A stretch of 11,627 nucleotides of DNA from a virus (IMGVR_UViG_2531839179_000018:1-11627), one strand, 5' to 3'. Shown: positions 201 to 11,627, numbered from the stretch's first letter. The notes: generated by a model from the letters alone, not told the origin. Program-made: numbers and translations.

Positions 201-824
201 TTATTCCACGATAAAATTCCTAACCGAATTCAAATCCTTCAGACTATTCAGCTCTTCCTTCAGCTCCCGCTGACGGCGATAAATCTCGTCATTGCGCTCA
301 ACCTGTGCCTGAGCCATTGCTGCCGCCAGTTCTTCCAGTTCCGGCATCGACAGTTTCACCTGCTGATTATCGGCATCACCCCACGTCATCACGTCCCGTA
401 CAATGTCGGATTTCGCAGCCATTACCACCGGATAAAGGCGGCCCAGTGAGTTGGGGCCAGCATTCCAGATACGACCGTTCCATTCAAACGTGAACGGCTT
501 CGCCTCCTGTTCTGTGCGCCATGCTTCAATTCCCTGACGTCTGGCCTCTCTGGCCGCTTCCAGCATTTCTGGTGTCACAGTGAATGGGGCTATCTCACCC
601 CATTTGCCGCTTTGCAGTTCCTGCCAGATTTGCTGACCCGTCGAAGCGACATCATCAGCGGTGGCTGTGTAGGGGACTGCCTGGTCCCTGTCGTCAAAAA
701 AAACGTCACAGTCTACTGCGCCACTTTCGGTATAACGGGGATTAATGATTTTTTTAATTTCCACGGTGCATTCCTCACGATGTGCGAATAAAAAGCCCGG
801 GCATTGCGCCAGAGACATGTGCAT
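201..824 (-). CDS. Tail-fibre-associated protein, putative fibre assembly chaperone (weak call)
   Basis: 207-aa ORF directly downstream of the Stf-like fibre gene, the position usually held by a Tfa/chaperone. No motif I can name with certainty. It overlaps the fibre gene by 50 nt; a GTG at 762-764 just after the fibre stop is a plausible true start. Confidence 0.45.
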   Translation of the reverse strand: MHMSLAQCPGFLFAHREECTVEIKKIINPRYTESGAVDCDVFFDDRDQAVPYTATADDVASTGQQIWQELQSGKWGEIAPFTVTPEMLEAAREARRQGIEAWRTEQEAKPFTFEWNGRIWNAGPNSLGRLYPVVMAAKSDIVRDVMTWGDADNQQVKLSMPELEELAAAMAQAQVERNDEIYRRQRELKEELNSLKDLNSVRNFIVE

Positions 825-2043
825 CCGGCACCCCGGACAGGGCGCAATATGACCCCGGTAATGAATGCTCTGAACATCCCGTAATGAAAAATTGTGGGGA
901 TGCTATATACGTTCCGGTGGGAGTACTGGTCACTGAAATCCCCACCGGTCCCAGTCGTGAGCCTCTGTATGACCGCCCCCTGACAAGTCTGATGACTTTA
1001 TCACCGTCAGCTTCTCCCTGGTACGCAGCAATAATCAGCCCGCCAATGTCAGGGTCTCCCCATCTGTTGCGGACAGAGCTCGCCACGATTCTGTAAATAA
1101 TATCTTCTGTGGTTATATTTATTTTCACCCAGCCAGTCAGTCTGGATATGGGCCAGTAGCAGTAGCGGGTGTGATAAATGGGGCCGTTAATGCCGTAAAA
1201 AGTAAGGGATTTGGCTCTGTACCTCGGTTCTGTTGTCTCAGGGCGTGCATCAGTCCACCGGATGCTGAGCACCCCTTCAAACCGTGTGTCAGGTATGATG
1301 ATGTCGTAGGGGCCAGCAACGGAATATTCACCTGGCAGCGCATTCCTTACCCAGGCCAGGAAATCACTCTTAGTGTCAAAACGGATAACATCTTCAGGCA
1401 GAAAAGCACGCCCAAAGCCGAATGCGCCGGGTATCGCCAGACGGCCTTTTGTCCGGTCGTAAATGTCGCTCTGTGCTTCCATCGTGGCTGCACTTTTCAG
1501 CCCCAGATTATCCCGGGACTTCTGTTGTGCCTTTTCGCCTGCTGCTGCGATTTCAGACAGATGGTTAGCCGTTTTCAGAGTGCCGGTCAGCGCAGCATCA
1601 ATGTCATTTTTGGCCTGTTCTGCTGCGCGGGCATAACCTGCGGCTGCCGCCACATCCTGCGCCGTCTGCTGTGCGTTTCCGGCTGCGGCCCCGGCGCTCT
1701 GCTGCGCCTGCGCCACCATTTCCTCAAAGCGTTTGACGACATCCGGTTTCAGGTCGCCCTCATCAGGAGCAATCAGAAAGTCATTCAGCGTGCCGGGCTT
1801 TGAGTCCTCATATACAGCAATGTCGCCAACGTTGTACTCGTTGCGCCAGTCCTGTTTCAGATACACACCATATTTTCCAGTCCGCGCATGGAAACAGTAT
1901 TCACCATCGTTTCCTGTCATCACATCAGCAACAGTGTGCATAACCACTTCCGGGGTGTTTACCCGGGATTTCAGAATAATATGGTATCCGGACATGGGGA
2001 TACCTGCGCCATCAGTCAGCGCACCTGATATCACTACAGACAT
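775..2043 (-). CDS. Side tail fibre protein with lambda-Stf-type N-terminal domain
   Basis: 422-aa ORF. The N-terminus (MSVVISGALTDGAGIP...VYEDSKPGTLNDFL) matches the conserved prophage tail-fibre N-terminal domain pattern of lambda Stf, followed by an Ala/Gln-rich coiled-coil-like stretch. The C-terminal ~100 aa are compositionally odd. Confidence 0.7.
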   Translation of the reverse strand: MSVVISGALTDGAGIPMSGYHIILKSRVNTPEVVMHTVADVMTGNDGEYCFHARTGKYGVYLKQDWRNEYNVGDIAVYEDSKPGTLNDFLIAPDEGDLKPDVVKRFEEMVAQAQQSAGAAAGNAQQTAQDVAAAAGYARAAEQAKNDIDAALTGTLKTANHLSEIAAAGEKAQQKSRDNLGLKSAATMEAQSDIYDRTKGRLAIPGAFGFGRAFLPEDVIRFDTKSDFLAWVRNALPGEYSVAGPYDIIIPDTRFEGVLSIRWTDARPETTEPRYRAKSLTFYGINGPIYHTRYCYWPISRLTGWVKINITTEDIIYRIVASSVRNRWGDPDIGGLIIAAYQGEADGDKVIRLVRGRSYRGSRLGPVGISVTSTPTGTYIASPQFFITGCSEHSLPGSYCALSGVPDAHVSGAMPGLFIRTS

Positions 2044-2066
2044 TGTTTTTCTCGCGATAAATTAAA

Positions 2067-2612
2067 TCAGGAAGAACCTTCCGGAGAGACGGGCCATTCA
2101 ATGGCGTTGTATGAGGATTTATCAGTGATGGCGCTGAAATCCATCGCCTGCAGTGATTTCGCGTAAATACGACAGGCTTTCAGCTTTTCTTTATCTTCGT
2201 CGCTGATTAACCCCAGCAGCAGGTCTTCTTCCCATTCCCCTGTCCGGGCACTGACCTGAGCCAGAAGGGCATCACGCTCATCTTCCGCTTTGAGTCTGTA
2301 GTCAAAGACAAATTCATCATTGCGGTAAAACCAGTAACCCGGCGCGGTAATCCGTCGGTTAGCGGTAATATCAGGAACTTCAATAACACTGGCATTGCGT
2401 GGCTCGATGCCTGTCACATCCTTACCGACCCACACCACACGACCGTCTCCGGTGTAAGCTATTTTTATTGTGTCGCTGGCGAAATTCTTCAGCTCTTCAT
2501 ACCAGTTTTTTCCGTCTTCTGAAAAAAGCCAGGTGACCGAATATCGTTTTGTCATCTGATATTGTTCTGCTGTTTTCGGATTACCCGCAGTAATATTTTT
2601 TAAATGCAACAT
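2067..2612 (-). CDS. Tail fibre assembly chaperone (P2 gpG / Mu U family)
   Basis: 181-aa ORF. N-terminus MLHLKNITAGNPKTAEQYQMTK...SEDGKNWYEELKNF closely resembles P2 gpG, and the C-terminus ends in the typical IEWPxxP motif. It starts 2 nt after the fibre stop. Confidence 0.8.
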   Translation of the reverse strand: MLHLKNITAGNPKTAEQYQMTKRYSVTWLFSEDGKNWYEELKNFASDTIKIAYTGDGRVVWVGKDVTGIEPRNASVIEVPDITANRRITAPGYWFYRNDEFVFDYRLKAEDERDALLAQVSARTGEWEEDLLLGLISDEDKEKLKACRIYAKSLQAMDFSAITDKSSYNAIEWPVSPEGSS

Positions 2613-2614
2613 TG

Positions 2615-3817
2615 TTAAATACTCGCTACGTTATACCAGGTGCCATTAATCAGTTTTTGCAGTGGTCGGTAATACACACCGTCAACGTTATCCGCTGAGT
2701 TACGGCCGGTATCCGATATCGCCATCCCTGACAGCCCGTGTCCCGAAGGTGCGCAAAATCTCCACGAAACGGTGTTACTGCCGGGGCTGTAATACATTTC
2801 ATGGCCATACCGTACATCCTGTACCCCCTCTGTTCGATATTTATAGCGGGCATCGAAGTTTCCGTAATTTAACGGAATTACCTGTCCGTTAACAGTGAAC
2901 ACTATGCTGTTATCCGGGTTTCTCTGGCTGAAAAAATGCCAGCCTGAATCATCACCAAGCTCTGCAACAACAGGCCTGGATGGATTACCCCACAAACAAA
3001 ACGCTGCATTTTTCGTGGAGTTGTTGGCGCTGGATAACGTGAATTTTCTGGCAGTTCCGGCCTGAATATTCTTAAAAGCAATAGCCACGCCATTCTGAAA
3101 ACGAAATACATGCTGTCCATTCGCATAAACATCCAGCAGACCATCGCCATTTTGTTTAAACCCGGTATCGTTATCTCCTAAAACGATTGAACTTCCACCT
3201 AACGCATTCGTCGTACCAATGCCAAGGCAACCATTAATGACGGCATTAACCAGAATATTTAGTGTATCCCATTTGAGATTCATCAGGTCTTTAACCCGGC
3301 CGCCAGCGAGGCGGTGTCTCCATTTGAAATATTCATTACCGTTATCCGCCGTTTCAAACCACATGTAGGAATCGGTGTCTGCATCCGAATCATTTTTAAA
3401 TCCAATCTTCGCCCAGTCAGTATTCCGAATCCAGGCGAGGATTGAGTCGTTTTCAAAAGTAAGTCCACCGGACAAGGTATCGCCTTCCTGATGAACATAG
3501 CGTTGATCTGACTGCTCTTTACTGTAAACCTGAAGATTATCCCGTGCCGTCCCTTTATTCTGAAGGTCTGACAGATTGTTCTTCTGCCGCAGGAATATCC
3601 TTTTCGGATCCTCAAGAAGATTTACCCAGCCCGCACTGTCGGAGCCTTCAGGATCGGTCAGGTTATCGTCTGTGGTATTCAGCCAGACCGCTGTTGTTGC
3701 GACTCCGGCGAGAATGGCTCCTTTTGCATATCCACCAATGGCCCCCGCAAAACCGGCATTATACGTGTACAAACCGCCAGCCTGGGCGAACCGTATTGCT
3801 GCGGTAATATCGTACAT
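2615..3817 (-). CDS. Tail fibre protein, major C-terminal portion (P2 gpH / Mu S-like); 3' segment of a gene interrupted at a G10 tract
   Basis: 400-aa ORF containing the conserved fibre C-terminal block ([32 protein letters not shown]...[10 protein letters not shown]). Its frame stays open upstream of the ATG through the homopolymer to a stop at 3872-3874. Confidence 0.8.
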
Positions 3818-3824
3818 CAGACCG

Positions 3825-4016
3825 TTAAAATCCTTGCCGTGTGGCGGTCCCCCCCCCCGCTGAGACCGCTGTCATGGTCGTCGGAGGAAAACCTGAATCA
3901 TACGCAGCATTACCGCTCTCTCTGGTCTGCTGTGTCGCCTTGTCCGGGATACGGTTTTTATCTCCGGTACTCGCAAAGGGGACCGCCAGCTGGCGGGGTT
4001 TATCACTGGCCTTCAT
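3825..4016 (-). CDS. Tail fibre protein, N-terminal segment (5' part of the interrupted fibre gene)
   Basis: 63-aa ORF with a strong Shine-Dalgarno (AAGGAG, 7-nt spacing) before its ATG. It reads through the G10 tract as Gly-Gly-Gly and terminates 8 codons later, in a different frame from the 400-aa ORF. Confidence 0.6.
3849..3858. repeat. Homopolymeric tract, C10 on the plus strand (G10 in the coding sense) inside the tail fibre gene
   Basis: Counted directly from sequence. It lies exactly at the frame change between ORF 3825-4016 and ORF 2615-3817. Confidence 0.95.
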
Positions 4017-4608
4017 TACGGGACTCCTTTAAAACTACTGAAACATAAACACCCGGCGGGGACGGCAGTGCACCCGACGACTGGATAATCGCCAGTTCTG
4101 CCGACGAGAGCGCGGACTCAAAGACGTAACTCATCCTCAGCCCGCCATTATTCAGAACATAAGCCCGGCGTTTTTTTCCGAACATAAACCTCAGCATCCG
4201 GTTAATATCCGGAACGGAACAGTCAGTAATATTCGACATGGCTTTCATCAGGATCAGTCGCCGGTATATGGCATCAGTCAGGTCAACAGTCCGGGTAACC
4301 GATTTTCCGTTGTAAAACGGTGCCTGATTAAACGGGCGGGAATCATCCATTACCGGGGTGTCCATCCTGGACTCGCTGAAGCCCAGGTAATTAAAATCGT
4401 CCTTTACCGTCAGCCGGCGACTGACACCCACAATCTTTCCCCAGACATCAAGACCATACTTTTCTGCGGTATCGATGTTCCAGATAAGACCATAAAAATC
4501 ACTGATAAAACTGTCGGGGGAAAGCGCTGCGTTAAAGCTGTTAATGAGGGCATTGAGTCGGGAGCTGGCAGCATACTGCGCAAGCACAGTGGCAGCCACA
4601 TTCTGCAC
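4003..4608 (-). CDS. Baseplate/tail protein in the gpI / Mu gp48 position
   Basis: 201-aa ORF between the J-like gene and the fibre gene. The call rests on synteny with P2 (V-W-J-I-H-G) and Mu (gp45-gp48, S, U); I cannot confirm the sequence family by eye. Confidence 0.45.
4024..4028 (-). promoter_or_regulatory. Shine-Dalgarno sequence for the tail fibre gene start at 4016
   Basis: The minus-strand mRNA reads AAAGGAGUCCCGUA-AUG, giving an AGGAG core 7 nt upstream of the ATG. Confidence 0.6.
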
Positions 4609-4609
4609 G

Positions 4610-5392
4610 TTATGCCTCCTGGAGTTTCACACTGATATCCGACACATCCAGAACCGGAATCTCATCTATCCCGAAAGTGACAGCCGTTGTCCATGACGAA
4701 CCGTCACGGCTCACAGTAAGGCCCAGAATATCAATATGTTCCGGATCGGTTTTGTAAATGCCGGCATAGTAGCGCCCGGCAGAGACAACAGAGGCAACTC
4801 TTGCCCGCAGACCACCATCTGTACCATTAAATGCGTCCAGCACGGATTGCTGTACCTGTCGGGTAATATCTGAAGGCAGGTAGTCACTTTTTTTCAGCGT
4901 CACACTGACATGCAGACTGACGGGTTTGAGTGTCTGCCAGCTGATCACGTATTCAGGATACGGCGGATCGTACTCCTTATCTGCAACAGTGAACGTTGTG
5001 TTGCCATTCATATCAATACCCGGCGGAGCCTTACGCCAGATGGCCGCCGCGATATCTGCCGGGCTGCCGCCGTACACGCCAACATAAAGCGAACCGGGTG
5101 TTAATGGATACTGACTGACTCCGGCTTTTTGTTCTGTTTTTTTCGGATTATGGGTGACGTAAACATCCACCACGTTTTCTACCGTGGAGAGTATTTCACC
5201 CCGGATGGCTTCCAGAATATTCCGGGCATTACGGGCAACTGAATTACGTCGGCGGTTTTCAAAGTCCGCACGGGTTTCCTCATCGCTGCCCGGCACACCG
5301 GCACGGGCGTTAGTGACACCTGACCAGCCAGGTATTGCCTTATAAATTTTATTCAGCGTCCCCACAGGACAGCCGACGGGGCCGGTGGACAA
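4610..5392 (-). CDS. Baseplate J-like protein, C-terminal portion (3' segment of an apparently frameshifted gene)
   Basis: 260-aa ORF that begins at TTG with no Shine-Dalgarno. Its frame is open a further ~20 codons upstream and overlaps the end of ORF 5395-5847; the two ORFs together (~410 aa) match baseplate-J size and position. Confidence 0.6.
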   Translation of the reverse strand: MSTGPVGCPVGTLNKIYKAIPGWSGVTNARAGVPGSDEETRADFENRRRNSVARNARNILEAIRGEILSTVENVVDVYVTHNPKKTEQKAGVSQYPLTPGSLYVGVYGGSPADIAAAIWRKAPPGIDMNGNTTFTVADKEYDPPYPEYVISWQTLKPVSLHVSVTLKKSDYLPSDITRQVQQSVLDAFNGTDGGLRARVASVVSAGRYYAGIYKTDPEHIDILGLTVSRDGSSWTTAVTFGIDEIPVLDVSDISVKLQEA

Positions 5393-5394
5393 AT

Positions 5395-5847
5395 TCAGAA
5401 ATACCGCATCAACCTGCCCTGATGCGCCGATAGTGACGTCTGACTGACATACTTATAACCGGCCTCATCCTGCGCCATACTGCTCGCCGGGATCAGCGTG
5501 CCAACCAGCCCGGTACAGGTCGCTGTTACTGTCGTACCTGTGGCCCCACGGCGCTCCAGGAAATAAATCCTGCCTATTGCATCCTGAAAGCGACCACTGA
5601 AAAAGTCAGGGTTGATCTGGTTAACGATATACAGCAACTGATCGTTTTTATCCGCAATAATGGCGCTTTCGCTGGATGCAAGTTGTCCCTGCGGACTGCT
5701 CAGACTGGTACTCATGGCCCCGCCCAGCGCCGCCGAAAAATCAGCAAGCCTGCCGCTCAGAATATCCGCTTCATCCGGCACATTCAGCCCGCTATCCGAA
5801 ATCTGTACAGCGGGCACTGCGGTAGAAAAAGATTTATTTTCACTCAT
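5395..5847 (-). CDS. Baseplate J-like protein, N-terminal portion (5' segment of an apparently frameshifted gene)
   Basis: 150-aa ORF whose start overlaps the upstream gene by 4 nt. It stops at TGA (5395-5397), 2 nt before the downstream ORF's first codon, which is in another frame. Confidence 0.6.
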   Translation of the reverse strand: MSENKSFSTAVPAVQISDSGLNVPDEADILSGRLADFSAALGGAMSTSLSSPQGQLASSESAIIADKNDQLLYIVNQINPDFFSGRFQDAIGRIYFLERRGATGTTVTATCTGLVGTLIPASSMAQDEAGYKYVSQTSLSAHQGRLMRYF

Positions 5848-6200
5848 AGCAGTACCGTAAAAATGTCATTATTGGTATCTGTAATACGCAGCACACCTGT
5901 TACTGTCCGGGTTTGATCAGTTGTGACCTGGCAGACAGCGGCGCTCACGGTCGGCAGTTTAAGTGCTTCCTGTTGCAGAGTGGCATTCACCAGTTGTGTG
6001 CCGGGCCAGTGTCCGAGGATGCGTGGCCAGTAAGGTATGCCAGCCGTTGAGTCGTACCAGCACTCCCCCAGAAAAGTACTGCACGCACACGCCACATCCT
6101 GAGCTACCGCATGGGGATTATCAGTAATGGCAAGATTTCCGGTATCATCAAGCAGGATATCCCATGTCCCGGTGTCAAGAAGAAGTGATCGTGACTGCAT
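5844..6200 (-). CDS. Small baseplate protein in the Mu gp46 / P2 gpW position
   Basis: 118-aa ORF between the spike and J-like genes. The call is by synteny and size only. Confidence 0.45.
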   Translation of the reverse strand: MQSRSLLLDTGTWDILLDDTGNLAITDNPHAVAQDVACACSTFLGECWYDSTAGIPYWPRILGHWPGTQLVNATLQQEALKLPTVSAAVCQVTTDQTRTVTGVLRITDTNNDIFTVLL

Positions 6201-6212
6201 GTTTTCTCCTGT

Positions 6213-6890
6213 TTACCGGGGTCCCTGCGTGGTTGAGCCGCCGGACTCAACGCCGCCGTGAACGTGGTTTCCAAAATCAATACCCCCGATGTTCGAACCG
6301 CCGGAAAGCCTGGACTGCCCGGTAACGTTAAGCCCCTTACTGACGGCGGTATCGCCGTTCAGCGCAATTTGTGGTGAGTTAACGGTGAAGCTTTTCGGCG
6401 CATTAATCACACCCTCAGGCGCGGATATCTCCACTTTCCAGGGAGATACAATCCGTATCTGGTTGTCATCAAATACCACAAACTGGACGGGATCACCGTT
6501 GAGCACGCCACCCAGCCAGATGGCATCAGCATAATTATGGGTACGCTTTGATCCCGGCATCGCAGCCTGACGCGTGGCTTTTACCGCACTGATATCCCGA
6601 TCGCAGATGGCAAGAAAACCGATATCCCCCACATGTGGCGGCATAATCACCGCATTACCGCCCCCCTGTAGTCGCCATACGGGAATGTTATAAATCACCT
6701 CATGTTCAACCGGGGAACCGTCTGCTGCAACGCCCATTACCATCGGTCGGGCCTCAATAAATCCCTCTTCCACGGCTACCACCCGTCCCAGAGTGATAAA
6801 CGCATGACGTCCGAGAAACTGCCGCAGCATAAAGTCCTGTGCATTGATTTCGCTGTTCACGTCTGTCGGGTTACTGAGTGGTTGTGCCAT
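6213..6890 (-). CDS. Baseplate central spike protein (P2 gpV / Mu gp45-like)
   Basis: 225-aa ORF of the right size and position for a spike protein, with a Gly-rich C-terminus carrying an HxH motif (GIDFGNHVHGGVESGG), as seen in spike apex domains. A Met at residue 21 is an alternative start lying after the upstream stop. Confidence 0.65.
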   Translation of the reverse strand: MAQPLSNPTDVNSEINAQDFMLRQFLGRHAFITLGRVVAVEEGFIEARPMVMGVAADGSPVEHEVIYNIPVWRLQGGGNAVIMPPHVGDIGFLAICDRDISAVKATRQAAMPGSKRTHNYADAIWLGGVLNGDPVQFVVFDDNQIRIVSPWKVEISAPEGVINAPKSFTVNSPQIALNGDTAVSKGLNVTGQSRLSGGSNIGGIDFGNHVHGGVESGGSTTQGPR

Positions 6891-7740
6891 TTTCTTCAGC
6901 CCTCATCATGGTACAGTTGGAACTCCACGGACCGCCCACGGTTCGCGAAGTAATGGTGTGTATCACCCCTGTGATCGTATAATCGCCCGTCATATCAGGC
7001 AGTGACGATTCCAGATGCGCTGGCCTGCCAGTAAAGAGATCGGGGCAGAATATCGTGGTGGCGCTGAGTCCGGTCATGGTGTAAACCGGATAGCCAGTCA
7101 GTCCGTGATCCGGCGAAATCAGTACCGGCGGAATATTCCGGTTCTGCCCTTTCGGCCAGATGGTGACTTTCTCCACATTCCCCAGATCAATGTTAATATC
7201 GGCGGCTGAAGCGACATCCAGCATTTGTTGTACAACATTACCGGAAAAATGCGGGTCAGACAGACTGCGGCTGACCCCCTGGTTTTCAAATCCAAGCCCG
7301 ACAGTTGACGCCAGCGCACGGATAATATCTGCAACCGCAACATCGCCCTTTGCGCTGAAATCTGCCGCCGGCTGATTACGCAGATTAAAATGAATCTGTC
7401 CTGTCAGAATGAGCGGAATATCCGGCGCCTGGTTGTAGTCGGCGTATGCATCAGTAATATCACCTTCAAAAATAAGCCGCCCGTCGGCCCACAGCCGCAT
7501 TTTATTTGCGGTACTCTGCTCCTGTCGCCACACACCGCGCCAGCTTAAATTCGTCATATGCGCCGGTGACATTCCCCAGATATACAGCGTGATTTGTGTA
7601 CCAGCCACCCCTCCATATACGGCAATACTGGCAAAACAGCTTGCGTCGGTAATGGTCAGCATATTGCCCTGGCCATTACCAAACGTTCGTCCGTCTGAAA
7701 GAGTGAACTCCACCGTTATTTTACGTTGTCTGTAGCTCAT
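6871..7740 (-). CDS. Tail/baseplate protein, possibly hub-like (Mu gp44 position)
   Basis: 289-aa ORF immediately upstream of the spike gene, with a start that overlaps the stop of the upstream fragment. Function is inferred from position only. Confidence 0.4.
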
Positions 7741-7959
7741 ATCAGTTCCTCAGGTAACAGCCAGTAGAGCCGGTACCGGGATCCGAGCCCCCGCCAGTCA
7801 GGGTCACTATTCCCCTCCGTGTCGGTAAAAAACAGGTCCCCCTGAAACGGCAGGTATCCGTACCGGACAATCCGGTTATTATTCAGACACAGCACGCCAT
7901 ACAGGCACGGTTCACCATTAACAATGATATCGATATACATCCCCGTAGTACGCTGATTC
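7737..7959 (-). pseudogene. 3' remnant (~74 codons) of a phage tail gene truncated by the IS66-family insertion
   Basis: The reading frame is open from the IS66 end at 7960 down to the stop at 7737-7739, and is translationally coupled to the next gene. The 5' part of the gene is replaced by IS sequence. Confidence 0.45.
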
Positions 7960-8897
7960 GTAAGCGCCCCGAGAAGTACGTAGCGTAAGGATTATTTTAC
8001 AGACGAGAAGTTCCAGGGAAGCAGTTCATGCACTTGGTTCGACGGCCAGTCATTGAGCTTCTCGATCACTTCGCGCAACCAGTCCTCCGGCTCCACTTCG
8101 TTCTGTTTGCAGGTGACCAGCAGACTGTAGATGATCGCCGCACTTTCTCCTCCCTTGTCTGAACCGAAAAAGAGATAATTTTTTCTTCCAACCGCCACCG
8201 ATCGTAACGCGTTTTCACCGATGTTGTTGTCTATTTCCACCCAGCCGTCACGACAGAACTCGTTCAGCGCATTCCAGTGATTCAGGATATAGTCGAACGC
8301 CTTCGCCATCTCCGCATGTTTCGACAGCGTTTTCCTCTGCAACTGTATCCAGTCGTACAACGACTGCATCAACTGGACGCTTCTGGCTTTTCTGACTGCA
8401 AGCCGTTCCTCTGCCGGACTGCCACGTATCTCCGCTTCTATATCGTATAACTCTGCTATCCGTCTGAGCGCTTCCTGAGTCATTTCTGTCGGACGGCGCA
8501 CATCCTCGTCATGGATTTTTCGGCGGGCGTGGGCCAGGCACCCGGCTTCCTTCACCCGGCCCGCTTCGTACAGTACGTTATAACCTGCATAGGCATCAGC
8601 CTGCAGTACGCCCTGATACTTTGCCAGGTGGAGCTGCGGATGTTCTCCTTTGCGATCTGCCGAATACGCGAACCAGACGGCTGCCGGCAGGGATGAACCC
8701 GCATTACGATCATCCCTGACGTATACCCACAGACGACCCGTTTTCGTCTTTCCGTTCCCCGGGGCCAGTACTTTCACCGGAGTGTCATCTGCGTGCACCT
8801 TTCCTGCCTCCAGAACATAGTCATTCAGCGCTATATACAGAGGACGGAGTTTGTCTGCCATTTCTGATACCCAGCGCACCATGGTATTACGGCTCAG
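7960..8897 (-). mobile_element. IS66-family insertion sequence, truncated: terminal repeat end plus the 3' part of tnpC
   Basis: The end begins with GTAAGCG at 7960, typical of IS66-family terminal repeats, and carries the tnpC C-terminal ORF. The element is cut at 8897/8898 by the IS3-family end. Confidence 0.7.
7992..8882 (-). pseudogene. IS66-family transposase TnpC, C-terminal fragment (N-terminal ~220 aa missing)
   Basis: 296-aa ORF carrying the C-terminal catalytic region of IS66 TnpC-type transposases (DDTPVKVL...QADAYAGY...HARRK). Full-length TnpC is about 520 aa. Confidence 0.8.
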
Positions 8898-9224
8898 TGA
8901 GGTAGCCTGAGTTTAACGGACACTCCTTCCTGAAATAGAATGGCATCAGAAGGAGCTAATAATGAGCAGAAAAACCCAACGTTACTCTAAAGAGTTCAAA
9001 GCCGAAGCTGTCAGAACGGTTCTTGAAAATCAACTTTCGATCAGTGAAGGCGCTTCCCGATTATCCCTTCCTGAAGGCACTTTAGGACAATGGGTTACCG
9101 CCGCCAGAAAAGGGCTCGGTACTCCTGGTTCCCGCACGGTGGCTGAACTGGAATCTGAAATTCTGCAACTGCGTAAGGCGTTAAATGAAGCTCGCCTTGA
9201 GCGAGATATATTAAAAAAAGCAAC
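8898..9224 (+). mobile_element. IS3-family element (IS600-like), 5' end only: left terminal repeat plus orfA up to the frameshift window
   Basis: The left end TGAGGTAGCCTGAGTTTAACGG resembles the IS911 left end. OrfA begins at 8962 with a Shine-Dalgarno, and the element is cut at 9224 by IS30. Confidence 0.7.
8962..9224 (+). pseudogene. IS3-family OrfA (IS600-like), truncated after ...DILKKAT by IS30
   Basis: Translation MSRKTQRYSKEFKAEAVRTVLENQLSISEGASRLS... has an HTH and leucine-zipper-like OrfA architecture. The six-frame ORF (8962-9330) runs artificially into the IS30 terminal repeat. Confidence 0.75.
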
Positions 9225-10445
9225 TGTAGATTCAATTGGTCAACGCAACAGTTATGTGAAAACATGGGGTTGCGGAGGTTTTTTGAATGAGACGAACATT
9301 TACAGCAGAGGAAAAAGCCTCTGTTTTTGAACTATGGAAGAACGGAACAGGCTTCAGTGAAATAGCGAATATCCTGGGTTCAAAACCCGGAACGATCTTC
9401 ACTATGTTAAGGGATACTGGCGGCATAAAACCCCATGAGCGTAAGCGGGCTGTAGCTCACCTGACACTGTCTGAGCGCGAGGAGATACGAGCTGGTTTGT
9501 CAGCCAAAATGAGCATTCGTGCGATAGCTACTGCGCTGAATCGCAGTCCTTCGACGATCTCACGTGAAGTTCAGCGTAATCGGGGCAGACGCTATTACAA
9601 AGCTGTTGATGCTAATAACCGAGCCAACAGAATGGCGAAAAGGCCAAAACCGTGCTTACTGGATCAAAATTTACCATTGCGAAAGCTTGTTCTGGAAAAG
9701 CTGGAGATGAAATGGTCTCCAGAGCAAATATCAGGATGGTTAAGGCGAACAAAACCACGTCAAAAAACGCTGCGAATATCACCTGAGACAATTTATAAAA
9801 CGCTGTACTTTCGTAGCCGTGAAGCGCTACACCACCTGAATATACAGCATCTGCGACGGTCGCATAGCCTTCGCCATGGCAGGCGTCATACCCGCAAAGG
9901 CGAAAGAGGTACGATTAACATAGTGAACGGAACACCAATTCACGAACGTTCCCGAAATATCGATAACAGACGCTCTCTGGGGCATTGGGAGGGCGATTTA
10001 GTCTCAGGTACAAAAAACTCTCATATAGCCACACTTGTAGACCGAAAATCACGTTATACGATCATCCTTAGACTCAGGGGCAAAGATTCTGTCTCAGTAA
10101 ATCAGGCTCTTACCGACAAATTCCTGAGTTTACCGTCAGAACTCAGAAAATCACTGACATGGGACAGAGGAATGGAACTGGCCAGACATCTAGAATTTAC
10201 TGTCAGCACCGGCGTTAAAGTTTACTTCTGCGATCCTCAGAGTCCTTGGCAGCGGGGAACAAATGAGAACACAAATGGGCTAATTCGGCAGTACTTTCCT
10301 AAAAAGACATGTCTTGCCCAATATACTCAACATGAACTAGATCTGGTTGCTGCTCAGCTAAACAACAGACCGAGAAAGACACTGAAGTTCAAAACACCGA
10401 AAGAGATAATTGAAAGGGGTGTTGCATTGACAGATTGAATCTACA
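9225..10445 (+). mobile_element. IS30, complete (1221 bp) with 26-bp imperfect terminal inverted repeats
   Basis: Left repeat 9225-9250 (tgtagattcaattggtcaacgcaaca) and right repeat 10420-10445 (reverse complement tgtagattcaatctgtcaatgcaaca) match at 23 of 26 positions. Length and single-transposase organisation match IS30. Confidence 0.9.
9287..10438 (+). CDS. insI: IS30 transposase (383 aa), intact
   Basis: Full-length ORF with an N-terminal HTH region and a DDE-type catalytic core; its stop lies inside the right terminal repeat. Confidence 0.9.
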
Positions 10446-10708
10446 GTAGCCTTTTTTAATATTTCATTCTCCATTTCAATGCGTTGTAGCTTTTTCCTCA
10501 GCTTACGTATTTCGATTTGTTCTGGTGTTATCGGAGAGGCTTTTGGTGTTTTGCCCTGACGCTCATCACGCAGTTGTTTGACCCATCTTGTCATTGTGGA
10601 AAGGCCAACATCCATAGCTTTGGCGGCATCTGCCACCGTGTATTTCTGGTCAACAACCAGTTGAGCGGATTCGCGTTTAAACTCTGCGCTAAAATTTCTT
10701 TTTTTCAT
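10446..10708 (-). pseudogene. insN: IS911 OrfA, truncated after ...EILKKAT by IS30
   Basis: Translation [51 protein letters not shown]... is the IS911 OrfA N-terminus as I recall it. The six-frame ORF (10358-10744) is a chimera that adds upstream codons and reads into IS30. Confidence 0.8.
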
Positions 10709-10780
10709 TGGAGCACCTGTGTTGTTCTGAGGTGAGCATATCACCTCTGTTCAGGTGGCCAAATTCAGTGTGCCACTTCA
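10446..10780 (-). mobile_element. IS911 (IS3 family), 5' end only, inverted relative to the IS600-like fragment
   Basis: On the minus strand the element begins TGAAGTGGCACACTGAATTTGGCCACC at 10780 and OrfA starts at 10708. It is cut at 10446 by the IS30 right end. Confidence 0.8.
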
Positions 10781-11627
10781 TATCTTAAACTACCGGAATG
10801 AACTGCTGCATGGAGAAACGCTTTACCTAGATAATCCAAGATCCAACAAAAAAGGAAGAACCGTGCGCACAGTTGATAACTATATCGCCCTGCTCTGTTC
10901 GTTGTTACGTTTTGCGTATCAGTCGGGATTTATATCAACCAAACCATTTGAAGGAGTAAAAAAATTACAGCGAAACAGAATAAAGCCTGACCCGTTATCT
11001 AAAACAGAATTCAATGCATTAATGGAAAGTGAAAAAGGACAGAGCCAAAACTTGTGGAAATTTGCCGTTTACTCCGGGCTTCGTCACGGGGAACTGGCAG
11101 CTCTGGCGTGGGAGGATGTGGATTTCGAGAAGGGAATTGTGAATGTCAGAAGAAACCTGACGATACTTGATATGTTCGGTCCCCCAAAAACAAATGCCGG
11201 GATCCGGACGGTAACATTACTGCAGCCGGCTCTTGAAGCACTGAAGGAGCAATACAAACTGACCGGGCATCATCGCAAAAGCGAAATCACTTTTTATCAT
11301 CGGGAGTACGGCAGAACTGAAAAGCAAAAACTGCATTTTGTTTTCATGCCCAGGGTGTGTAACGAAAAACAGAAACCTTATTACTCGGTAAGCAGTTTGG
11401 GTGCAAGATGGAATGCAGCAGTAAAACGTGCTGGTATTCGCCGCCGTAATCCGTACCATACGCGACATACTTTTGCCTGCTGGCTGTTGACGGCAGGAGC
11501 GAACCCGGCATTTATAGCCAGCCAGATGGGGCATGAAACTGCGCAAATGGTGTATGAAATTTACGGTATGTGGATTGATGACATGAACGACGAACAGATA
11601 GCCATGTTGAATGCGCGGTTATCGTAG
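10781..11627 (+). pseudogene. Tyrosine recombinase (phage integrase), 5'-truncated; C-terminal catalytic domain present
   Basis: C-terminus carries catalytic-domain motifs (HTRHTFA...MGHETAQMVYEIY with the tyrosine nucleophile). The N-terminal domains are absent; sequence upstream of 10781 is the IS911 end, and the ORF's apparent start (GTG at 10755) lies inside it. Confidence 0.8.

Follow-up and report, generated by a model that had tools for sequence, protein, structure and literature searches.

A probable temperate myovirus remnant, eroded by insertion sequences, beside sitABCD at the Rac site of Shigella dysenteriae 155-74

Results

Genes and features of the locus

We analysed an 11,627-nucleotide stretch of viral DNA (IMGVR_UViG_2531839179_000018:1-11627, which as a whole is called the window below) that carries contractile-tail baseplate and fibre genes next to a cluster of insertion sequences (ISs), and that we examine here as a probable prophage remnant (Table 1). 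All 11627 bases are 100% identical to contig AFFZ01000026.1 (612 kb, assembly GCA_000211935.2), and AFFZ01000000 is listed as Shigella dysenteriae 155-74, serotype 2 (PMC4374849). Along this contig the order is a PAS-GGDEF gene, a CorA-type gene, dbpA, ttcA, the integrase fragment, IS30, the IS66 fragment, the baseplate hub and the genes that follow it as far as the DUF4376 gene, and then sitDCBA, uspF and ompN. At the ttcA end, the IS cluster has cut off the N-terminal 130 amino acids (aa) of a Rac-type integrase, whose remaining part is the far boundary of the former prophage. The gene intR adjoins ttcA in Escherichia coli K-12 too, and the IntR fragment beside ttcA therefore indicates that the element occupies the Rac attachment site.

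Table 1. Features of the window in coordinate order, with the matches behind each assignment (E, expect value; ORF, open reading frame).
Feature	Coordinates	Strand	Evidence or remark
DUF4376 protein, 207 aa, last phage gene before sitD	201..824	-	PF14301 (precomputed list); RefSeq DUF4376 beside sitD in syntenic CFSAN029787 prophage
Second tail fibre, 422 aa	775..2043	-	PF08400 phage_tail_N E 2e-70; phrog_2636 tail fibre E 2e-203
Fibre assembly chaperone, 181 aa, intact	2067..2612	-	PF02413 Caudo_TAP E 2e-26; phrog_136
Tail fibre pseudogene	2615..4016	-	fragments 4016..3825 (63 aa) and 3817..2615 (400 aa)
P2 gpH-like fibre core	about 2912-3451	-	within the fibre pseudogene
Outer wedge protein DUF2612/Phage_Wedge1, 201 aa, intact	4003..4608	-	PF11041 E 6e-66; PDB 7kh1 'baseplate wedge protein gp17' E 8e-8
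J-type wedge pseudogene	4610..5847	-	fragments 5847..5395 (150 aa) and 5392..4610 (260 aa)
Sheath initiator, 118 aa, intact	5844..6200	-	PDB: Pam3 gp21 E 1.5e-7, E217 gp34 E 1.3e-6; phrog_120
Central spike, 225 aa, intact	6213..6890	-	PF18352 N-terminal domain and PF18946 GpV Apex, C-terminal apex motif
Baseplate hub, 289 aa, intact	6871..7740	-	PF22759 E217_GP41 32.7 bits (cut-off 27); phrog_196 E 6e-64
Plug remnant without 5' end	7737..7959	-	67-aa ORF 7940..7737 of a 100-aa protein; PF22479 Pam3_gp18, E 6e-13, profile positions 37-99 of 101
IS66-family transposase fragment without N-terminus	7960..8897	-	NF033517 transpos_IS66, profile positions 125-386 of 387
Nested IS cluster: IS600-type orfA fragment, complete IS30 (transposase 9287-10438), inverted IS911-type orfA fragment	8898..10780	.	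NCBIfam IS3 and IS30 matches
Rac-type integrase IntR, C-terminal 281 aa	10782..11627	+	99% identity to K-12 IntR residues 131-411

The baseplate and fibre genes all lie on the minus strand, and their order of transcription is plug remnant, hub, spike, sheath initiator, J, DUF2612, fibre and chaperone. Families were assigned from Pfam hmmscan, PHROG profiles, a precomputed Pfam list for the identical locus, PDB sequence searches and BLASTP, and these searches placed all of the module's ORFs in contractile-tail baseplate or fibre families. An earlier note on this DNA had listed a hub, a spike, a small baseplate protein, a J-like protein, an I-position wedge protein, a fibre and a chaperone in this order, and each of them is present; it had overlooked that the J and fibre genes are each split by a frameshift. 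The limits it drew around the module (2067-7740) were too narrow, because the module continues on both sides, into the plug remnant at one end and the second fibre and DUF4376 genes at the other. It had also suggested that sheath and tube genes be looked for to the left of the window. The upstream side of the operon is instead the right-hand, high-coordinate side, where the flanking features are the ISs, the IntR fragment and ttcA.

That upstream side has indeed been replaced by ISs, as the earlier note said. Plug homology to the intact prophage ends at 7959, 80 nt before the plug start codon, and the IS66 fragment takes the place of everything upstream of it; between the truncated plug and the truncated integrase there are insertion sequences only. 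No sheath, tube or tape-measure gene was found in the window by gene calls, Pfam or PHROG, nor in the 4-6 kb flanks of AFFZ01000026.1, and head, lysis and tube-initiator genes were likewise missing from the window and from either flank. Rfam and tRNA scans of the window returned no matches.

Among the baseplate genes, the hub shows 100% DNA identity to its counterpart in a prophage of E. coli CFSAN029787; its direct sequence match to the Pam3 gp19 hub in the PDB has E 0.54. The C-terminal 80 aa of the spike share 30% identity with Mu gp45 (BLASTP, E 2e-8). The intact homologue of the J protein matches PF04865 Baseplate_J (48.8 bits, cut-off 21.1) and E217 gp44 in the PDB (E 6e-25); since Baseplate_J is common to all simple myovirus baseplates, it does not discriminate a Mu/e14 type. 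The DUF2612 protein has a weak match to E217 gp45 and is expected, by analogy with solved baseplates, to be the fibre-docking subunit of the wedge triplex.

For the 118-aa sheath initiator the Pfam sources differ: our own Pfam hmmscan gave no family and the precomputed list gave PF10934 Sheath_initiator, with which the PDB matches side. The 150-aa J fragment (5395-5847) is matched end to end by phrog_30339 (150 positions, unknown function, E 8e-102), which appears to be a pseudogene fragment catalogued as a protein family.

Intact relatives

Of 5426 complete E. coli genomes, 9 contain at least 80% of the module at 97-99% identity. Two copies, 98% identical to the window, are found in strain CFSAN029787, each ending a complete prophage, and the prophage family is present at two to three places in that genome. 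The CFSAN029787 prophages encode a full head (small and large terminase, DUF1073 portal, head morphogenesis, DUF2213, cement, capsid, neck and terminator proteins) followed by a DUF3383/E217_gp31_N sheath, a tube, a tape measure that includes a lytic transglycosylase domain, a Dit-like protein, the 100-aa plug and then the genes of the window; upstream of the structural genes they carry a holin-lysozyme-spanin cassette and four tRNAs. In other copies, the precomputed Pfam list names nearly every virion gene after E217, Pa193, XM1 or Pam3. When the 19-kb structural module of an intact prophage was compared with deposited phages by megablast, the terminase genes were all that matched, and no close relative among sequenced phages emerged. 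The intact relatives represent an uncultured temperate myovirus lineage with a virion of E217/Pam3 type, a lambdoid lysis region and a fibre tip of P2/Mu type.

The two CFSAN029787 siblings differ in the cargo directly after their fibre genes, which is ipaH in one (locus L001, 17887-19650) and sitABCD in the other (locus L002, 16551-20000). IpaH is a type III effector ubiquitin ligase. The sit-linked copy shares its second fibre and its DUF4376 gene with the window.

Lesions and junctions

Exactly two indels separate the window from the intact copies. In the J gene, 4 bp present in the CFSAN029787 copies are deleted at 5444, which removes one CTGA unit from (CTGA)3 (5440-5447), and putting CTGA back gives a 413-aa J ORF with no internal stop. 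In the fibre gene, one C has been gained at 3858, within a C10 tract (3849-3858), relative to the CFSAN029787 copy, and removing one C gives a 466-aa fibre ORF, again with no internal stop. The length of this poly-C tract (poly-G on the coding strand) varies between assemblies: 10 C in the window and in loci L007 and L010 of our comparison set, 11 C in L006, L008 and L011, and 13 C in L009. Intact CFSAN029787 copies have either A+C8 or the interrupted ATACCTCCC at the tract, both in frame, and all Shigella-type contigs seen are out of frame.

Exactly inside the same tract, two other complete genomes have an element of the IS110 family (DEDD_Tnp_IS110; L019, ~13648-15102; L025, ~13914-15110). 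The insertions, at the equivalent of window ~3853, split the tract into parts of 4-5 C and 5-6 C. The tract may be a preferred target of this element, or the element may have shaped it.

The J deletion also occurs in a differently decayed copy (L017, L018, L023 and L024) in which the tape-measure, Dit-like and plug genes are kept and the sheath, tube and DUF2612 genes are cut by ISs; it must therefore be an old change or one spread by conversion. Between the surviving intact genes and their versions in complete prophages, identity is 99.7-100%, which indicates that the decay is recent. About 85 of the 115 differences between copies fall in 2000-3500, the fibre/chaperone region. Substitutions in the hub, spike and sheath initiator are few and non-synonymous, and their counts are too low for a selection test.

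The IS66/plug and IS66/IS600 junctions were also found in the complete genomes CP026824.1 and CP027027.1, so an assembly artefact is ruled out. In both of these genomes, head genes and fragments of the sheath gene survive beyond the IS cluster. A contig collection with one genome per species contained no exact match to the IS66/plug junction. The junction between IS911 and intR was seen in 155-74 only, and this, together with the shared junctions, shows stepwise decay: an IS-associated loss from the tube gene through the plug came first, and a larger deletion reaching the integrase came later. The IS600/IS30/IS911 composite itself is 99.7% identical, as a single piece, to loci in K-12-derived and other E. 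coli, and the unit is conserved across chromosomal contexts.

A mosaic joint inside the fibre gene

The two ends of the fibre resemble different phages. Residues 1-131 of the repaired protein share 42% identity with the N-terminus of the fibre of Pantoea phage PA-1, and the full-length fibre aligns with Mu S from residue 127 onward. The match to P2 gpH begins at residue 174 of the 466-aa fibre (CFSAN029787 numbering), which is residue 108 of the 400-aa fragment in the window: residues 108-400 of the fragment align with gpH 392-669 at 68% identity over 293 aa (BLASTP, E 7e-138). This similarity is uneven, with 73-90% identity at residues 189-368, 20-57% at 369-454 and 75% in the last 12 residues. 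At the DNA level, window positions 2909-3485 are 81% identical to P2 H over 576 bp, and G+C content is 0.51-0.55 in the baseplate genes against 0.45-0.47 in 2250-3500. The PA-1-like N-terminus, the points at which the Mu S and P2 gpH alignments start, the DNA identity to gpH and the drop in G+C together place a mosaic joint inside the fibre gene, at ~3625-3637, where, as judged from these alignments, a lineage-specific N-terminus is joined to a P2 gpH-like distal part.

The chaperone gene that follows is of the same Caudo_TAP family as P2 G and is 39% identical to it (45% to Mu U' and 39% to Mu U; BLASTP). The earlier note had called the module a mosaic with a fibre C-terminus like P2 H and a chaperone like P2 G. 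Each part of that description stands, with the additions that the P2 type applies to the distal two-thirds of the fibre, that the fibre tip has diverged and that the chaperone is nearer to Mu U'.

Beyond the chaperone, a further unit comprises sitABCD, the DUF4376 gene and the second fibre, whose DNA is 84% identical to that of the phiP27 fibre region. The fibre of the sit-linked CFSAN029787 prophage is 410 aa long, compared with 466 aa for the repaired fibre of the window. Positions 2894-3088 of the window have no BLAST match in the sit-linked prophage, while the ipaH-linked copy matches the window throughout. The window joins the fibre allele of one sibling to the downstream genes of the other, an arrangement consistent with exchange of fibre cassettes between copies.

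Discussion

A prophage remnant and its ancestor

The earlier note had left undecided whether these genes are a dead prophage or part of a tail-derived particle system. We conclude that positions 201-11627 are very probably the remnant of a temperate myovirus that had integrated at the Rac/ttcA site of S. dysenteriae 155-74; the flanks, the lesions and the head genes of intact relatives speak for a prophage remnant and against a particle system. The locus combines an IntR fragment at ttcA, phage structural genes, two frameshifts and two truncations, missing modules and adjacent sitDCBA. The module cannot work: the sheath, tube, tape measure and tube initiator are missing, the plug is truncated and the J and fibre genes are frameshifted. 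The remnant is probably silent, and it would have persisted because its decay is recent and its neighbour is a useful transporter. SitABCD transports iron and manganese and plays a part when Shigella grows in cells (PMC4746246). The locus is an ordinary IS-eroded prophage remnant of an already known kind, one more case of IS-driven prophage decay in Shigella beside the virulence-associated sitABCD, and matters little in itself.

The live ancestor would have had a lambdoid lysis and early region, a virion of E217/Pam3 type and sitABCD as cargo after the tail-fibre genes. We assigned assembly roles by homology to the solved baseplates of Pam3 (PMC9942802) and E217 (PMC10329688), and the 2:1 stoichiometry of the triplex is taken from those structures. 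On this model, a hub trimer carrying the spike trimer would form the centre of the tail tip, and the tube initiator and six plug monomers would dock onto it. This centre would be surrounded by a sheath-initiator hexamer and by six wedge triplexes in which two J subunits join one DUF2612 subunit. The fibre N-terminus would dock on the DUF2612 subunit, and the distal part of the fibre, drawn from the P2/Mu fibre pool, would be folded by the Caudo_TAP chaperone. Binding of the fibres to a host would then send a signal through the triplex, leading to spike release and sheath contraction. Deletion mediated by ISs, from the integrase to the plug, probably took away regulation, lysis, head, sheath, tube, tape measure and tube initiator.

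Could the surviving parts still be of use?

Several observations weigh against reading the locus as a mere remnant. Six intact genes are 99.7-100% identical to genes of complete prophages, and could be used in trans by a sibling prophage. The promoter scan gave 9 sites where 13.3 were expected by chance, and the promoter/terminator scan as a whole was at or below chance and so carries no information on expression. Finally, the fibre frameshift sits in a homopolymer whose length depends on the assembly (10, 11 or 13 C), and part of that variation could be sequencing error.

The first of these points leads to an alternative that we consider quite improbable: that the retained hub, spike, sheath initiator, DUF2612 protein, chaperone and second fibre serve resident prophages in trans or act as a reservoir of host-range cassettes. 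The prophage family is multi-copy in relatives, as in CFSAN029787, the differences between copies cluster in the fibre/chaperone region, and the intact genes are nearly identical to live copies. Recent decay predicts such high identity equally, however, and no promoter or late activator is left upstream. The few substitutions in the hub, spike and sheath initiator give no sign of purifying selection, at counts too low to test, and no sibling prophage was seen in 155-74, where the analysis covered this locus and its flanks.

The proposal that the genes belong to a tailocin, a headless contractile killing particle whose sheath and tube are encoded nearby or elsewhere, can draw on the intact state of several baseplate genes, the chaperone and the second fibre, and on the lack of head genes in the window. 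Against it, both flanks (ttcA/dbpA and sitDCBA/uspF/ompN) lack sheath, tube, tape-measure, tube-initiator and lysis genes, and the lesions strike the essential J wedge and the fibre by frameshift and the plug by truncation. Near-identical copies stand in prophages with complete head and packaging genes, and other genomes with the same IS66/plug junction keep remnants of head genes. Because the lineage makes heads, it is a phage and not a tailocin, and we give the tailocin almost no chance. Kinship with the tail module of the Mu/e14 family, as a relative of the e14 jayE-ymfQ-stfP-tfaP remnant, is hardly credible either: the order matches Mu gp44-45-46-47-48-S-U, the spike C-terminus resembles gp45, and the fibre and chaperone are like Mu S and U/U', but the hub, the small protein and the I-position protein belong to other Pfam families than Mu gp44, gp46, gp48 and e14 YmfQ, no e14 protein matches by BLASTP at E < 0.01, and the virion module of intact relatives carries E217, Pa193, XM1 and Pam3 names.

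The intact sibling prophages of CFSAN029787, rather than the prophage remnant, are the objects worth study for how sit and ipaH genes move. Their lineage may be a main vehicle of ipaH and sitABCD into Shigella and related invasive E. coli, and the poly-G tract of the fibre gene (10-13 in the Shigella copies) could be an on/off switch worked by slipped-strand mispairing, or a preferred target of the IS110-family element; we put these ideas forward as long shots. Both may be trivial: that prophages carry ipaH and sit is already broadly known, and the variation of the tract may be neutral slippage or sequencing noise in a dead gene.

Comparison with known baseplates, fibres and sit elements

The sit island of Shigella has been portrayed as unstable and rearranged (PMC7545054). 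Cryptic prophages of the pathogenicity island (PAI) sit and the Rac site resemble the window, which is likewise IS-ridden and rearranged, with sitABCD directly beside fibre genes and a Rac IntR at ttcA (PMC7545054). Among coliphages of the infant gut, sitABCD has been reported on phages of lambda type (PMC6969025), whereas the vehicle in the window has a contractile tail.

In its gene order the module resembles Mu gp44-45-46-47-48-S-U, and this part of the Mu/e14 label given by the earlier note is sound, as an order common to simple myovirus baseplates; in homology the label fails, because the families are of E217/Pam3 type. Mu gp44 has PF22255, PF21683, PF21929 and PF05954, Mu gp46 has PF07409, Mu gp48 and e14 YmfQ have PF10076, P2 I has PF09684 and P2 W has GPW_gp25 (Pfam). 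By comparison, the window hub has PF22759 as its sole Pfam match and no significant BLASTP match to Mu gp44, and the DUF2612 protein has neither PF10076 nor PF09684 and no BLASTP match to Mu, P2 or e14. Thus the hub, small-protein and I-position families differ from those of Mu gp44-gp48, and Baseplate_J alone is shared with Mu and P2. Over all window proteins, BLASTP against Mu and P2 gave matches for the spike C-terminus, the fibre and the chaperone only, and the search against e14 proteins gave none at E < 0.01. The e14 remnant of E. coli K-12 (jayE, ymfQ, stfP, tfaP) is similar in being the tail end of a cryptic prophage whose J gene has become a pseudogene and in having the same order of roles, but it has a different I-position family (YmfQ) and its proteins show no detectable similarity to those of the window. 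With P2, the likeness lies in gpH and gpG: the fibre core and the Caudo_TAP family are alike, while the baseplate-attaching N-terminus of the fibre is unlike that of P2, identity over the distal ~90 aa drops to the 20-57% given above, and the chaperone is nearer to Mu U' than to P2 G.

The closest cultured relative is the temperate myovirus PA-1 of Pantoea (OQ847583). Its gene order is identical (sheath, tube, chaperone, tape measure, Dit-like, plug, hub, spike, sheath initiator, J, DUF2612, fibre), and protein identities are 52% for the plug, 40% for the hub, 45% for the spike, 61% for the sheath initiator, 57% for J, 60% for DUF2612 (ORF078) and 42% for the fibre N-terminus. The order from hub to fibre is therefore not specific to Mu. 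PA-1 differs in being a complete phage with its own distal fibre part and a tailspike and without a Caudo_TAP chaperone, and DNA similarity is limited to a 96-bp match in the terminase.

More distant in sequence, yet of the same protein families, are Pseudomonas phage E217/Pa193 and cyanophage Pam3, whose baseplates were solved by cryo-electron microscopy. The window has the features of this type: a plug gene beside the hub gene, a hub of E217 gp41 type, a sheath initiator, and a J gene with a second wedge gene downstream. The shared families imply the same architecture of hub and spike, plug and six triplexes. E217 is virulent and has the extra cap proteins gp37/gp38, and the fibres of Pam3 are attached by disulfides, whereas the fibre of the window is a chimera of P2/Mu type and its module is broken. 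The six-component baseplate of Pam3 was itself compared with that of Mu by its authors (PMC9942802). For the window, gene order alone mislabels the module as Mu/e14-like, and profile families put it with the baseplates of E217/Pam3 type.

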